Virus genome (UHGV): UHGV-0021747
Direction: 5' to 3' (one strand)
Length of the DNA: 30,815 nucleotides
From: a virus
This document shows, piece after piece, positions 18,881-30,706 of this stretch (position 1 is its first letter; each line of letters opens with the position of its first letter). The position numbers were made by a program, and so were the translations under genes. Under the pieces are notes generated by a model that was given only the letters and a program-made list of their open reading frames with translations, made no database searches and was not told where the DNA came from.

Positions 18881-20029
18881 TTACTTTGAAAAGATCGCGG
18901 CAAATCTATGGGAAACCTCGATGCTTTTTCTGTCGATGAGCAAATAAAAGATGTAAGAACATGCATAAAGCATCACCACTGATATTAAAACAGCTGATAA
19001 ACATGCGCTGGAGTCGCTCATGATTTTCCTTGATTCATGATAAACTGGCCCTGATAAGCAATAAAATACAGGCATTTGAATCAAGTATGCCGAGAATGAT
19101 AACTTTCCTAAAAAGACCATGATTTTTGATTCAGAAAACCATGACATAACCCCAATCTTACATAGGGAATATACCACTCCAATTCCAGATAATAGATTGA
19201 AAAGCAAGTATACATTTATTTTCTCAATGCTGTGAATAGATAATGAAAATTCTTTTAACCATGCGTAAAGATAATGATTATATTTAAATCCAGCCAAGTA
19301 AAGTGATGCAATAAGAATTGCATATCCAATAACCTTATTCTTATATGAACCGCATAAACATATAGCCATACCAAAAAGGAATGATGCGTACCCATATGCA
19401 TTTTTATCATTAAAGTTAATTATGATTAAAACTGCGATTAAAGATAATATTAGCGGTGCTTTTTTAATAAAGATAGAAATAGGAGATATCAAAAAGACAA
19501 GGAGAGAACCATAAAACTCAACCTGCATAGTCCATGTAACCATATTTATTGATGAGTCACCTTTGAGTATGGAGCCATATAGTGAGTTTTTTAAAACTCC
19601 TATCACAGATAAATCACCATCTTTACCCAATGACCAAATCCACGGAACCCAATACTTATTGAAAGGGAAGTAATTTACAACAATTGCGCAAATAATAATC
19701 GATGCCGAAACTGGTATTAATAATCTTACATACCTTTCTAGCAGCATCTTTGCGGACTTCTTAGATATACAACCAGACCTGAAAATAACACTTGTAAGTA
19801 TATATCCGCTTAATACAAAGAATATATATACAGCTGAAGTTCCAGAGTAAGTGAAGCCTATTGGTAAATCTCTTGTCACCGCATCAAAAGAAGACTTAAT
19901 TATCTTTGTGTCTCCAGTATGCAGGTAAGGGAAAAAAATTATTGATAGATGAGAAAGCACTACCATCAAGCAGGCCAACCCCCTCACACCCTCTACCGAA
20001 AGAACCTTGCCACCATCAATCTTATTCAT
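18881..20029 (-). CDS. Acyltransferase family 3 integral membrane protein (putative O-antigen/surface polysaccharide acyltransferase)
   Basis: 382 aa from ATG at 20029 (the supplied ORF extends to TTG at 20050). Multi-pass hydrophobic profile and an N-terminal ...GVRGLACLMVVLSHL motif typical of acyltransferase-3. Strongly AT-rich. Confidence 0.8.
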   Translation of the reverse strand: MNKIDGGKVLSVEGVRGLACLMVVLSHLSIIFFPYLHTGDTKIIKSSFDAVTRDLPIGFTYSGTSAVYIFFVLSGYILTSVIFRSGCISKKSAKMLLERYVRLLIPVSASIIICAIVVNYFPFNKYWVPWIWSLGKDGDLSVIGVLKNSLYGSILKGDSSINMVTWTMQVEFYGSLLVFLISPISIFIKKAPLILSLIAVLIIINFNDKNAYGYASFLFGMAICLCGSYKNKVIGYAILIASLYLAGFKYNHYLYAWLKEFSLSIHSIEKINVYLLFNLLSGIGVVYSLCKIGVMSWFSESKIMVFLGKLSFSAYLIQMPVFYCLSGPVYHESRKIMSDSSACLSAVLISVVMLYACSYIFYLLIDRKSIEVSHRFAAIFSK

Positions 20030-20192
20030 ATAATTTCCGTATATGCACAAAGTTAGTGTGCATTAATAAAAGATAATACCCCTACTTGCATAACAGATAG
20101 CACGTGTAACTAAACGCTGAGCAATCAGAGGTTTCCGTAATTATCTGAGTTTATCACTCAAATCTCTATTGATCGACACCACCGATCGACAA

Positions 20193-22718: not shown

Positions 22719-22776
22719 ATAAAACAAAACTCGCCGTAGCGAGTTCAGATAAAAGAAAACCCGCACTCGGCGGGTT
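22719..22776 (-). terminator. Two tandem rho-independent terminator candidates on the minus strand
   Basis: Hairpin aacccgc-N5-gcgggtt then U-tract (22745..22776), and hairpin actcgc-cgta-gcgagt then U-tract (22719..22744), as read on the minus strand. Confidence 0.5.
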
Positions 22777-23077
22777 CGCATTCGTTCAAATTGCGCTTAC
22801 TTCTTGGCGTTCTGTTCATCCATCTCGATATACCATGGTTGCTTCCCTTGGGCAGGTTTAACGACTGCTCGCGATAGTATCTGACGCGCTCCATGAAATA
22901 CTCGCGTGAGTGCTCAGGTTGCTCTCGTGCTACCTGCTCAGTGATAACAGGTATGTTAAGGCGCTCTCTGTACGCCACGCCTGATGCTGCAAGGTCAACG
23001 TTTGCCTTGTTCTGTTTTTCTTTCGATTGCTCGGCGATGTTATGCCTGGCATTGTCAACCCGCCTCCTTCTGAACAT
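22745..23077 (-). CDS. Hypothetical protein (110 aa)
   Basis: ORF in early-left orientation; weak ribosome-binding site, and the 3' end overlaps the terminator hairpin. Confidence 0.35.
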   Translation of the reverse strand: MFRRRRVDNARHNIAEQSKEKQNKANVDLAASGVAYRERLNIPVITEQVAREQPEHSREYFMERVRYYREQSLNLPKGSNHGISRWMNRTPRSKRNLNECEPAECGFSFI

Positions 23078-25206: not shown

Positions 25207-25385
25207 TTCTTCCCACTCCGCAACATCGCATTCAGATATTTGTTTTGATTCACTGATGGAAAAGAATTTCTCTTAAGTAATTCCTCTCTCGATGGCATTT
25301 GCTTTACGCGTTGGCGAATAATCATTTCTGCCGGAAGAATGCCGGGATTGTATGCAAGTCCTCTCATGGTAAATTCCTCAGTCAT
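25203..25385 (-). CDS. Hypothetical small protein (60 aa from the internal ATG)
   Basis: Start placed 2 nt after the stop of 25378..25674; the longer frame to 25550 overlaps the upstream gene. Confidence 0.3.
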
Positions 25386-25674
25386 TACTGATAGCGCCAT
25401 AGCGTGAGCGGTAATTACGCAGGCGCGGGTCGATATATTCAGGGAAGTGGGTATATGTGGCTTTGCGGAATGGTCGGATTGATGTCTGGTAAATTCGCTC
25501 TCGTTCTTCTTTCTCTGCAAGCCATATACAATGGCGAAATTCCTTTTCATCTTTCGTTTCCTGCGGTAGAGACATTATTCGATCGTAGTTTTTTCTGAAT
25601 TTATCCAGCACCTCCGATACGGAATTGCCGGAACAGCGGCGCTGGTCATCCGCACCATACAGAGGCGCTGGCAT
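25378..25674 (-). CDS. Hypothetical protein (98 aa)
   Basis: ORF with balanced charged composition; no family recognised. Confidence 0.5.
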
Positions 25675-25690: not shown

Positions 25691-26239
25691 TTATTTAGCT
25701 AATTTTTTCCAGATTGCTGAAACGTATTTGGCTTGGTGGATGGCATCATCAAGCGCGTTGTGGCGAGTTCCTTTGAATGGCATATCTCGCTTAGGGTCAA
25801 ATCCTATTACCTTTCCAAGCTCGACGATTGTTCTTACGTCGCGGTCATTCCACCACTGCCACGGAACTGGCTGCCCTGTCAGCGAATAACTGTTGCGGAG
25901 AATAACGCAGTCAAATGATGCTCCATTCCCCCAAACCTGAACGAATTTGTGGTTAGCGTTCTTTATGATGAATTCAGATAACCATGAAAGAGCCGTTGAA
26001 AGCTCCTGAGTGTTGCTGGTTAGCGATTTTCTGGCTTCTTCACTCTGTTCCATCCACCATAAAATCGTTGAAGCGTCAGGACGCGCCCGATATCGCATTG
26101 ATGACTCAAGCGAGATATTTACCGAGAACTCTTCTCCTGTTTCTCCGGTATTCGGGTCAAAGAACACCGCCCCAATAGAAATAACTGGCGCGTATGGCCC
26201 GTTGCCCATTGTTTCAAGGTCAACCATTAAGTGATTCAT
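25691..26239 (-). CDS. DEDDh-type 3'-5' exonuclease
   Basis: MVDLETMG (Exo I motif) and HNALDDA (Exo III motif) at the expected spacing. Confidence 0.75.
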   Translation of the reverse strand: MNHLMVDLETMGNGPYAPVISIGAVFFDPNTGETGEEFSVNISLESSMRYRARPDASTILWWMEQSEEARKSLTSNTQELSTALSWLSEFIIKNANHKFVQVWGNGASFDCVILRNSYSLTGQPVPWQWWNDRDVRTIVELGKVIGFDPKRDMPFKGTRHNALDDAIHQAKYVSAIWKKLAK

Positions 26240-26247
26240 GTAAGTCC

Positions 26248-26727
26248 TTAAATTGCGTGAATAGTGTGACGAGGGAAGGGGAGAGTTACTGGCTCCTCGT
26301 CTGGGTAGATAGGTTTGTTATGTTTGTGCCACTCGACATGACATGACTTGCAGAGCCACATCACATCGGTTGGTTTGCTGTAGTCGCAGTGGTGCGCCTG
26401 TGGTTTACATTCTGATCCGCAGCACTCACATTGTGGTGGTCGGATTAGCTTACCGTCGCGCAAAAAATTACCCACGATGATGTGGGCTTTTCTTTTCCAT
26501 GGGTTGCTCTGAATGAACCGCTTTTTGGCTGCGTTACACCGTTCTCTGCCGCGTTCCGATGATTGATATTCTCTCCTTGCTGATACTCGATGTGGCAATC
26601 CCGCGCGCTCTTTGTCATATTCAGCCAGGCAAGCCCGGCAAGCGGCAGTTAATCCATCTCTGGATGCTCTTCTGATTTGAAAGTCCCTTTCTTCCTTCTG
26701 TTGATGGCATCTTGAGCAGATTTTCAT
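26248..26727 (-). CDS. HNH endonuclease
   Basis: Cys pairs and HHCDYSKP...WLCKSCHVEWH are characteristic of an HNH/zinc-finger nuclease. Confidence 0.7.
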   Translation of the reverse strand: MKICSRCHQQKEERDFQIRRASRDGLTAACRACLAEYDKERAGLPHRVSARREYQSSERGRERCNAAKKRFIQSNPWKRKAHIIVGNFLRDGKLIRPPQCECCGSECKPQAHHCDYSKPTDVMWLCKSCHVEWHKHNKPIYPDEEPVTLPFPRHTIHAI

Positions 26728-28444: not shown

Positions 28445-28510
28445 GGGTAACTCCTTATATTTGATTGCATAACGAAAATGCCTCTAGTGAAGCATTATTG
28501 GTATACATAT

Positions 28511-28533
28511 AAAAAAACCCTCACACTGGAGGG
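28511..28533 (-). terminator. Rho-independent terminator candidate (minus strand)
   Basis: Hairpin ccctc-N6-gaggg followed by a U7 tract on the minus strand. Confidence 0.5.
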
Positions 28534-28650
28534 CAAAGAAGATTTCCAATAATCAGAACAAGTCGGCTCCTGTTTAGTTACGAGCGACATTGCTCCGTGT
28601 ATTCACTCGTTGGAATGAATACACAGTGCAGTGTTTATTCTGTTGTTTAT

Positions 28651-28678
28651 GCCAAAAATAAAGGCCGACTATTCGGCC
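28651..28678 (-). terminator. Rho-independent terminator candidate (tL1 analogue) at the 3' end of the acidic gene
   Basis: Hairpin ggccga-ctat-tcggcc followed by uuuauuuuugg on the minus strand. Confidence 0.5.
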
Positions 28679-28992
28679 TTATCTACATTCCTGAACCAAA
28701 CGCAGATCGGACCGTCTTCTGTATCGTGAATCGAACCGACAAACCATCCTTCTCCATCTGGCATGCTTGGCTCCCATCCACTGATGTTTTGATTCCCATC
28801 TTCAAAATACGCGTCAATTACCGTTTGATTGTTGTCGTTTTCCATTTCAACAATTGATGATTCAATGCCATGCTGCTTGCAGAAAGATCTGAACTCATCA
28901 GCTGAAATTACCTCTCTATCCCCAAACAGGTTGGCGTATTCTGGGTGCGTCCAGTAGCCATCCTCGCTTCGCTCTACTACTAATGCTTCCAT
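28669..28992 (-). CDS. Acidic hypothetical protein (107 aa), immediately downstream of N
   Basis: GGTGAG Shine-Dalgarno overlaps the N stop, with an 8-bp intergenic gap. Strongly acidic (many D/E); no family recognised. Confidence 0.6.
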   Translation of the reverse strand: MEALVVERSEDGYWTHPEYANLFGDREVISADEFRSFCKQHGIESSIVEMENDNNQTVIDAYFEDGNQNISGWEPSMPDGEGWFVGSIHDTEDGPICVWFRNVDKAE

Positions 28993-29000
28993 ATCTCACC

Positions 29001-29327
29001 TCAAATAAGTGGTTTACTGCCTAATTTCATTTTCTGGCGACCAACACAAGTTACACCCATTTCACTGCGTGGCTTGCTGTACCATGTGCGCTGATTCTTG
29101 CGCTCAATACGTTGCAGGTTGCTTTCAATCTGTTCGTGGTATTCAGCCAGCACTGTAAGGTCTATCGGATTCAGTGCGCTTTCTACTCGTGATTTCGGTT
29201 TGCGATTCAGCGAGAGAATAGGGCGGTTAACTGGTTTTGCGCTTACCCCAACCAACAGGGGATTTGCTGCTTTCCATTGAGCCTGTTTCTCTGCGCGACG
29301 TTCGCGGCGGCGTGTTTGTGCATCCAT
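29001..29327 (-). CDS. N: Antitermination protein N (lambda-type)
   Basis: MDAQTRRRERRAEKQAQWKAANPLLVGVSAKPVNRPILSLNRKPKSRVESALNPIDLTVLAEYH.QIESNLQRIERKNQRTWYSKP reads as essentially lambda N. Start taken at the internal Met of the supplied ORF. Confidence 0.9.
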   Translation of the reverse strand: MDAQTRRRERRAEKQAQWKAANPLLVGVSAKPVNRPILSLNRKPKSRVESALNPIDLTVLAEYHEQIESNLQRIERKNQRTWYSKPRSEMGVTCVGRQKMKLGSKPLI

Positions 29328-29499: not shown

Positions 29500-29530
29500 G
29501 CCCTTCTTCAGGGCTTAATTTTTAAGAGCA
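29500..29530 (-). promoter_or_regulatory. nutL site: boxB GCCCTGAAGAAGGGC and boxA-like TGCTCTTAA
   Basis: Reverse complement of 29500..29514 is the lambda boxB hairpin exactly; boxA-like sequence at 29522..29530. Confidence 0.85.
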
Positions 29531-29574
29531 CCACCTTCATGGTGGTCAGTGCGTCCTGCTGATGGCTTAAAATA

Positions 29575-29654
29575 TACCTACAGGTAAAACATCTGTCTAT
29601 ACCTGTAGGTAAATATAATTGATGTGAGAGTTTACCTGCTTGAATTTTCAGGTA
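29575..29654. promoter_or_regulatory. OL/pL operator region: palindromes TACCTACAGGTA (29575..29586, 29600..29611) and split TACCTG-N10-CAGGTA (29633..29654)
   Basis: Repeated 12-bp palindromes upstream of the N leader, identical to sites upstream of cI. Confidence 0.55.
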
Positions 29655-29671: not shown

Positions 29672-29697
29672 ATATAAAAAAGCCCGCTTTGCGGGCT
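29672..29697 (-). terminator. Rho-independent terminator ending the cI operon
   Basis: Hairpin agcccgc-aaa-gcgggct followed by uuuuuuaua on the minus strand. Confidence 0.6.
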
Positions 29698-29708
29698 GAA
29701 AGGAGATG

Positions 29709-30023
29709 TCAGAAGCTATTTGGATTGCTTGGCCATTGCGGCAATTTTGATTCTACTGGGGTGTGTTTGGGTTTGAGTCCGTTTAAGTAGTCAAGGCGCT
29801 CAATGGCGCATTTATACATAGCAATCTGCTCTGATGACATGTCGTCGTATGACATGCCTTTGAACTTTTTAATTATCGATTCTGCCTCATGTATAAGATG
29901 CTTCTTCCTCATGAGTTCAGCTGTATGCTTAGAGCTTACAGGAGATAACTTTGCCCATATGAAGCAGATGATTACAACAGCGACTACTATGCCGGGTATA
30001 AACATTTGCTGCTTTATCCTCAA
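29709..30023 (-). CDS. Small single-pass membrane protein (104 aa) translationally coupled to cI
   Basis: ATGA overlap with the cI stop. N-terminal hydrophobic helix IPGIVVAVVIICFIWAKL then a charged soluble domain. AT-rich; followed by the operon terminator. Confidence 0.6.
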   Translation of the reverse strand: MRIKQQMFIPGIVVAVVIICFIWAKLSPVSSKHTAELMRKKHLIHEAESIIKKFKGMSYDDMSSEQIAMYKCAIERLDYLNGLKPKHTPVESKLPQWPSNPNSF

Positions 30024-30706
30024 ACTTTTGGCAGATCGTCCTGGTCTACGTACCTGGTGTGTTTCACAATAGCTGAAACAAAATGCATTTTATCAACTTC
30101 TTCAACAGGAAGAGTGATTGGGCGGTGATCACTGTTTATGCTACTAAACTGATAATCACCGTCTCTTGTTTTGTTCATGATCTTTATCATGTTGTGACCG
30201 TCTTTGGTCCTTACAAAGACTTCATCACCTGGATGTACTGGCGTATTTGGTTCAATAACAACATATTCTCCTGACTGAATCCTTGGCCACATGCTGTCAC
30301 CCTTAACCTTCAGACCGTAAGCATCTTTATCGCCGCTGTAGATGCTTAACCAACCGGATCTGAATTCAATCATATCCACTGAGCCATCAACTCCCAAAAC
30401 GGCTTCACCAATTACCGGAACAAAACCCGCACGAACGTTACCCGCAAACTCAAGATGGTCCGTAGCTCCAGCTTTACCATCTGCAAGCATGTCCATCCAT
30501 CCGCGTGGGAGATTAAAAGATTTTTCAATTAGTTCCATCATATCGTCAGCAATGCGTTTTTTTCCGCTTTTTCCTTCCGGATACAGCATTCTGGAAACGT
30601 ATGATGGTTCCCTTTCTATTCGACGAGCCAACTCTGAGGCCTTTCCATTACAGAATCGGTCTCTTATCTCTATCAGCCTTAGTCGTCTTTGTTCGTATTT
30701 ATCCAT
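30020..30706 (-). CDS. cI: cI-type prophage repressor (N-terminal HTH plus S24 LexA-like autopeptidase domain)
   Basis: Ala-Gly cleavage-site candidate (GKAGAT), GDSMWP catalytic Ser motif and a downstream Lys (MIKIM); 228 aa. Confidence 0.9.
   Translation of the reverse strand: MDKYEQRRLRLIEIRDRFCNGKASELARRIEREPSYVSRMLYPEGKSGKKRIADDMMELIEKSFNLPRGWMDMLADGKAGATDHLEFAGNVRAGFVPVIGEAVLGVDGSVDMIEFRSGWLSIYSGDKDAYGLKVKGDSMWPRIQSGEYVVIEPNTPVHPGDEVFVRTKDGHNMIKIMNKTRDGDYQFSSINSDHRPITLPVEEVDKMHFVSAIVKHTRYVDQDDLPKV

Follow-up and report, generated by a model that had tools for sequence, protein, structure and literature searches.

ORF107, an acidic protein encoded directly after N in virus genome UHGV-0021747, is an orf184 allele and a candidate early binder of a host protein

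The ORF107 locus and its closest relative

We analyzed the virus genome UHGV-0021747, a stretch of 30,815 nucleotides (nt) that is referred to as the window in the following, with a focus on the open reading frame (ORF) ORF107. This gene is located on the minus strand directly downstream of the gene for a lambda-type antiterminator N (Table 1), and its acidic product may act as an immediate-early binder of a host protein. Direct reading of the sequence showed 107 codons between an ATG start and a TAG stop. Eight nucleotides lie between the N stop codon TGA (29003..29001) and the ATG of ORF107 (28992..28990), and 6 nt separate the GAGG (29002..28999) of the Shine-Dalgarno sequence from the downstream ATG. 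These coordinates confirm an initial annotation, made from the sequence alone, according to which the gene starts 8 bp after N with its Shine-Dalgarno sequence over the N stop.

Table 1 Features of the early leftward region around ORF107. Positions refer to the window.
Feature	Position	Strand	Description	Basis
pL-like promoter	29571..29599	minus	TAGACA, 17 nt, TATATT; 10/12 matches	promoter scan
nutL	29500..29530	minus	boxA-like TGCTCTTAA (29530..29522) and boxB GCCCTGAAGAAGGGC (29514..29500)	direct reading
lambda-type antiterminator N	29001..29327	minus	probable start MDAQTRRRERR; longest ORF to 29378	
Shine-Dalgarno sequence of ORF107	28997..29002	minus	GAGGTG; overlaps N stop TGA	direct sequence reading
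ORF107	28669..28992	minus	acidic protein of 107 amino acids (aa), orf184 / phrog_1372 family	ORF list, sequence, and homology
terminator-like hairpin and T-run	28651..28680	minus	holds ORF107 stop	consensus scan, RNA fold, and lambda alignment
second terminator-like hairpin	28510..28534	minus	GCCCTCCAGTGTGAGGGT and T-run; in lambda between ral and ea10	

The pL-like promoter is situated amid repeated operator-like palindromes (TACCTGTAGGTA). The boxB hairpin of nutL was also picked up by the scan for terminators and hairpins, and the region is homologous to the nutL region of lambda. The DNA of N plus nutL is 85.6% identical to its lambda counterpart, the N translation includes MDAQTRRRERRAEKQAQWKAAN, and matching phages carry an N annotation for the homologous gene. 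At the other end of ORF107, an 8-bp terminator-like hairpin (AAGGCCGA-ATAG-TCGGCCTT, 28680..28661) has the stop codon in its loop; the hairpin is followed by TATTTTT and a T-run to about position 28651 and has a fold energy of −15 kcal/mol (z = −4.0 compared to shuffled sequences). The 5′ arm of this hairpin consists of the last ORF107 codons, and its 3′ arm and T-run belong to a flank shared with lambda downstream of ral. The hairpin straddles a mosaic joint, and the 5′ arm at the equivalent place in lambda (34060..34090) appeared much weaker by eye. The initial annotation had put ORF107 upstream of the first leftward terminator, which it located at 28651..28678; our hairpin at 28680..28651 agrees with this arrangement. 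A consensus scan for hairpin-type, Rho-independent terminators on the minus strand from the pL-like promoter (29599..29571) to the ORF107 hairpin detected no other terminator-like site. The second hairpin farther downstream is presumably lambda tL2a. Based on this layout, ORF107 is the second cistron of the predicted pL transcript and is close-coupled to N. Because promoter, N, ORF107, and terminator follow each other in this order, we infer that ORF107 would be made from pL together with N before antitermination.

Comparison with lambda placed the joints of the ORF107 cassette at base resolution. The homologous stretch breaks off at the stop codon of ral (window position 28672, lambda position 34087) and resumes within the 3′ end of N (window position 29026, lambda position 35062), consistent with the initial annotation, which had noted that the slot after N is occupied by ral in lambda. 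Given these two joints, the 324-bp ORF107 replaces the lambda module ral-orf28-sieB. In related phages that have the same N, this slot is filled by ral or other small genes, and 12 IMG/VR loci possess a close ORF107 copy 9 nt downstream of a lambda-type N; judged from these alignments, ORF107 sits in an exchangeable cassette slot. Ral and ORF107 are both small proteins with the same slot, identical mosaic joints, and the same pL transcript. In contrast to ORF107 with its 107 aa, Ral has 66 aa, and the two sequences share no similarity (no BLASTP alignment between ORF107 and lambda Ral at E ≤ 100). The layouts also differ in that there is no space for a tL1-type terminator between N and ORF107. 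Moreover, restriction alleviation is the activity of Ral, whereas none is on record for ORF107.

The nearest phage protein is gp45 of phage mEp213 (AFM76385.1 / YP_007112388.1), which is 97.2% identical to ORF107 over residues 1–106 of 107, and the PHROGs family matched by ORF107 is phrog_1372 (E = 1.2e-43), annotated as function unknown. A search for the motif GSIHDTEDG in the supplements of Silas et al. (bioRxiv 10.1101/2023.04.06.535777) led to AFM76385.1, which is listed there as UDP0184/orf184. By sequence, ORF107 thus is an allele of orf184 (mEp213 gp45; PHROG 1372) and hence already known. The initial annotation had recognized the sequence as neither Ral nor any other named protein; ORF107 is indeed not Ral, and the published orf184 is 97% identical. 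In the library of 200 accessory genes built by Silas et al., the curator comment on orf184 is ‘???’, meaning that it was checked and nothing meaningful was found. The same study reports that orf184 is conditionally lethal in strain ECOR59, where it triggers cell death, that transposon suppressors of this phenotype map to beta and gop, and that the orf184-dependent death is recreated in a lab strain by cloned gop-beta-cII. The toxin-antitoxin-like Gop-beta-cII system, located in the P4 hotspot, confers protection from lambda and P1 (Rousset et al. 2022, PMC9122126). ORF107 is expected, from its near identity with orf184, to trigger Gop-beta-cII cell death likewise. The follow-up paper (Nat Commun 2025) contains neither orf184 nor gop in its text or supplements, and our literature searches found no mechanistic paper on Gop-beta-cII and no match for phrog_1372 or E2348C_0668.

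ORF107 and mEp213 gp45 have the same length and occupy the same accessory region downstream of N, and the flanking DNA is 97% identical at the nucleotide level over window positions 28511..29024. The two proteins differ by three to four substitutions. A further difference is that ORF107 abuts the lambda-type N, whereas approximately 1.7 kb (gp50 to gp46) lie between N and gp45 in mEp213. In the mEp213 region (locus L001, 3953..6324), N is gp51, and the stretch from N to gp45 holds a second, N-like gene, gp47. The window junction of the N 3′ end with the gp45 homologue matches both places in mEp213, which suggests that the cassette was inserted by recombination at the 3′ end of N. Of 5426 complete E. 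coli genomes, 41, among them E2348/69, contained near copies of the gene, annotated as ‘hypothetical protein’ (at least 80% cover of a 401-bp query; those listed were 98–99.5% identical).

Selection, predicted fold, and spread of the family

ORF107 is a genuine gene under purifying selection. The ratio of nonsynonymous to synonymous substitution rates (dN/dS) was 0.10 in comparison with a 94%-identical copy; relatives with 71–83% amino acid identity showed dN values of 0.10–0.20 with saturated synonymous sites. The protein contains 24 D+E compared to 6 K+R residues, with a net charge of −18 and an isoelectric point of 4.11, and it is the most acidic product among the window’s 53 ORFs with 80 aa or more, in line with the strong acidity pointed out in the initial annotation. 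Scans against Pfam and NCBIfam assigned ORF107 to no family (the sole match, to DUF2303, had E = 0.12 and was far below the cut-off), and no PADLOC-DB defence hidden Markov model matched at E ≤ 1. Likewise, ORF107 showed no profile similarity to Ocr and no match to the Pfam profiles of the Lar_restr_allev zinc ribbon (PF14354) or the Tad2-like domain (PF11195), which occur only as fusion partners in relatives (Tad2-like in the single relative P0075). Neither the ORF107 protein alone nor a 25-sequence profile had a match among PDB sequences.

The initial annotation had recommended structure prediction as a way to find a DNA-mimic or known anti-defence fold. An AlphaFold2 model with 25 homologues as input was confident (mean predicted local distance difference test score 88, predicted template modeling score 0.78) and comprised three helices and three strands. 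The hoped-for match was not obtained: comparison of the model with the PDB yielded no solved structure, Foldseek matches in the predicted viral structures of BFVD were uncharacterized family members only, and neither sequence nor fold indicated kinship to Ocr, ArdA, or another solved DNA mimic. ORF107 is a single autonomous domain of approximately 105 aa with a confidently predicted alpha/beta fold.

A profile search of 1.84 billion representatives retrieved 1005 proteins at E ≤ 1e-3 and 492 at E ≤ 1e-10, each representative standing for a cluster at 50% identity. The net charge of 174 family domains of approximately 106 aa was −14.3 ± 3.4, whereas the partner regions fused to them had −2.8 per 100 aa; the family has conserved its strong acidity. 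Alignment columns with at least 80% conservation form an N-terminal motif, RxxxGxWxHP, and a C-terminal motif, WxPxxPxGxGWFxxSIxDTEDGPxxxWxR. The most conserved element in ORF107 is a predicted beta-hairpin (GWFxGSIH-DTEDG-PxCxWxR), together with the N-terminal RxxDGxWxHP. The AlphaFold2 model and the alignment identify DTEDG as an acidic turn between two predicted strands. Near-invariant polar residues are R8, H16, S87, D90, T91, E92, D93, and R101.

Among the best 150 of the 1005 representatives, one half were stand-alone proteins and the other 75 were extended by 50 or more residues, 38 of them at the N-terminus and 37 at the C-terminus; one family protein in this set holds two copies of the domain. 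Fusion partners recognized by Pfam were Lar_restr_allev (n = 3), Rv2179c-like 3′-5′ exoribonuclease (n = 2), Tad2-like (n = 1, E = 1.5e-22), and KTSC, DHHA1, and HTH_24 (n = 1 each), and the largest partner cluster includes a domain ending in KAGALILAEIERLDR. The family domain, as seen in these protein sequences, behaves as an autonomous and freely recombining module. It resembles the polyvalent counter-defence proteins described by Iyer et al. (2017, PMC5512222) in being fused N- or C-terminally to unrelated accessory domains. Unlike the large proteins on which that paper centers, the fusions found here are short (160–520 aa, two to three domains); no mention was found in its main text of DUF2829, KTSC, Rv2179c, MazG, or phi1026b.

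The commonest fusion partner is a domain of approximately 100 aa with the motifs AERxRQ...HDD...GELAxAAAxY...KAGALILAEIERLDR, carried by P0048, P0063, P0083, P0084, P0090, P0095, P0097, P0128, and P0162. Many long PHROG families, such as phrog_6628, end in this same domain, which is itself a promiscuous phage module. This domain had no Pfam or PDB match, and the PHROGs that it matched were only families of ‘unknown function’; a guess that it is MazG/DUF550-like was dropped, as it found no support in Pfam, PDB, or PHROGs.

Two types of fusion partner are also encoded as separate genes in the window’s own pL operon. One is an Rv2179c-like 3′-5′ exoribonuclease (25691..26239, minus strand, Pfam E = 2.8e-73), whose domain is fused N-terminally to the family domain in P0073 and P0076, a possible Rosetta-stone link. 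The other is a 159-aa endonuclease (phrog_2340; 26248..26727, minus strand), the first ~70 residues of which match the Lar-like zinc ribbon phrog_5558 (E = 7.5e-7).

Homologues were detected in 80 phage records, at least 541 IMG/VR loci, and 2443 of 72,556 plasmid records. The phage homologues span Burkholderia, Pseudomonas, Erwinia, Vibrio, Klebsiella, Pectobacterium, and Yersinia, and most of the family-bearing plasmids were conjugative (2130) and from Klebsiella (1896). With approximately 1000 clusters at 50% identity plus these plasmids, the family is far larger than the description ‘widely distributed among coliphages’ conveys. On an Enterobacter IncF plasmid (L008, 8983..9306), the homologue is part of the tra operon, with traW and traU as its neighbors on either side. 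On the Klebsiella IncFII/IncFIB plasmid pIT-01C03, which bears Tn4401, it adjoins genes for a DUF2726 protein and a phospholipase-D-family protein upstream of repA (L009, 2160..2468). In phage Rac-SA53 (L005, 3992..7019), the homologue rac22 is 43% identical to ORF107 and lies ~1 kb from genes annotated as ‘CII phage-like protein’ and ‘beta’. This neighborhood is curious given that the mEp213 homologue triggers Gop-beta-cII; a functional link of rac22 with the adjacent beta and cII-like genes was left aside, since the region contains no gop-sized ORF and an IS1 lies in between.

Candidate function and alternative explanations

We propose, with a probability of about 0.5, that ORF107 is a polyanionic protein of the immediate-early phase which binds or inhibits a host protein, and that Gop-beta-cII senses it. 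Synthesis would fall into the first minutes of infection and precede N-dependent antitermination, and the protein would act stoichiometrically and not as an enzyme. With its polyanionic surface and, if exposed, the tip of the invariant acidic hairpin, it would occupy a basic site, most likely a nucleic-acid-binding one, on a conserved host protein that may be a defence component or a housekeeping factor. Gop-beta-cII might then sense the ORF107 protein itself or the disturbance caused by it, and such sensing would parallel other abortive systems that detect Ocr, Ral, or Abc2. This proposal is supported by the phenotype of the 97.2%-identical orf184, the early layout, the replacement of ral in its slot, the conserved acidity and DTEDGP turn, the module-like fusions, the spread over mobile elements of Proteobacteria, and the lack of an assignment to an enzyme family or known fold.

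Several observations weigh against it. A metal, ligand, or catalytic site could just as well be built from the conserved His, Ser, Cys, Asp, and Glu residues, and some fusions in metagenomic gene calls may be artefacts. In the infection arm of the screen by Silas et al. (bioRxiv 10.1101/2023.04.06.535777), the validated host-sensitizing phenotypes belonged to Ocr, Ral, ArdA, six novel genes, and IpII; across 45 phage-host combinations, the paper does not name orf184 as host-sensitizing, which leaves a counter-defence role hypothetical. The examined plasmid homologues sit at traW-traU or near repA and not in the expected region of DNA entry, which suggests a role beyond shielding incoming DNA. 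Furthermore, the homologues in Rac-SA53 and PY54 are located in rightward or nin-like accessory regions and not after N; immediate-early timing is therefore not a family trait.

How the alternatives compare depends largely on the same data. That ORF107 is a chance reading frame or a dead remnant is practically untenable: nothing but its small size and the absence of a curated family speaks for this, and it is refuted by the dN/dS of 0.10, the 1005 cluster representatives with a near-invariant motif, the confident structure prediction, and the experimental phenotype of the 97%-identical protein. A special case of the polyanionic binder would be a classical anti-restriction DNA mimic: a functional counterpart of Ocr, ArdA, or Ral by which type I restriction-modification (or BREX) is blocked or modulated as infection begins. 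ORF107 occupies the exact ral slot in an immediate-early layout, relatives are fused to Lar restriction-alleviation domains, and PY54 has a Lar-like gene in the same operon as its homologue. Like Ocr (T7 gp0.3) and ArdA, which are made first in infection, ORF107 is small, very acidic, and, judged by its layout, also made first; the strong negative charge is conserved among its relatives, and its close homologue also activates a cell-death system. However, Ocr is an elongated helical dimer, whereas ORF107 is predicted to have an alpha/beta structure, and the lack of a reported anti-restriction phenotype in the Silas screen, the absence of a related fold, and the gene positions on plasmids make such a mimic improbable. 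The anti-restriction or anti-defence role proposed in the initial annotation thus gained partial support in its general form and none in its specific form of a DNA-mimic restriction inhibitor.

It is quite improbable that the protein is instead a sponge or enzyme acting on small nucleotide signals or nucleotides in the style of Tad1/Tad2, Acb2, or Apyc1, which would neutralize a signaling defence. The Tad2-like, DHHA1 phosphoesterase, and Rv2179c-like exoribonuclease fusion partners and the near-invariant polar residues would fit this idea, but the partners are too diverse for a single chemistry, a domain with a charge of −14 and a conserved acidic cluster is poorly suited to anionic nucleotides unless a metal bridges them, and no known sponge or nuclease family or fold was matched. 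Rather unlikely is a modulator of host takeover or housekeeping outside immunity, such as an inhibitor of a host protease, a nucleoid protein, or a factor of recombination or replication in the style of cIII, Kil, Gam, or T7 gp5.5, from which mobile elements in general would benefit. Such a role would agree with the operon neighbors (cIII, Kil, a Rad52-like recombinase, SSB, Abc2, and a Pol III theta homologue), with the homologues inside tra operons of conjugative plasmids, and with the absence of a reported counter-defence phenotype. It is opposed by the fast-exchanging accessory slot that ORF107 shares with ral and sieB, the triggering of an abortive-infection system by the homologue, and the fusions to Lar and Tad2-like domains. 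This explanation partly overlaps with the preferred one, as the polyanionic binder leaves undecided whether its target belongs to defence or to housekeeping.

As a tentative extension of the binder proposal, the orf184 domain might represent a new fold of polyanionic nucleic-acid mimic that blocks a conserved DNA- or RNA-binding defence or surveillance protein guarded by Gop-beta-cII. It could then count among the most widespread inhibitor modules of mobile elements, present in phages of many Proteobacteria and on ~3% of sequenced plasmids, and its target, once found, would uncover both a new mechanism of counter-defence and the logic by which Gop-beta-cII senses. The cloning and screening of a 97%-identical copy and its triggering of Gop-beta-cII were already known; our analysis adds the family size, the conserved acidity and beta-hairpin, the modular fusions (Lar, Tad2-like, exoribonuclease, and DHH-family), and a fold without solved match. 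Finding the target could account for an accessory gene that is common on plasmids and in prophages of clinical importance, and the killing by Gop-beta-cII is an available genetic read-out for the role of this family.

Other genes in the window

An ORF of 104 aa with a hydrophobic N-terminus (phrog_10450; 29709..30023, minus strand) is located directly downstream of a CI-like repressor gene (30020..30706) and upstream of pL, which is the position of rexAB in lambda, and is followed by a terminator-like site (29697..29681). A possible role is that of an exclusion gene or moron expressed in the lysogen. The window also encodes the anti-RecBCD protein Abc2 (25378..25674, minus strand, Pfam E = 1.5e-60), a homologue of DNA polymerase III theta (22745..23077, minus strand, E = 2.2e-30), and an O-acetyltransferase (phrog_3333; 18881..20050, minus strand), and these three predicted products together mark a mosaic lambdoid prophage. 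The closest matches of its early region include Sf6, HK544, and Sf101.
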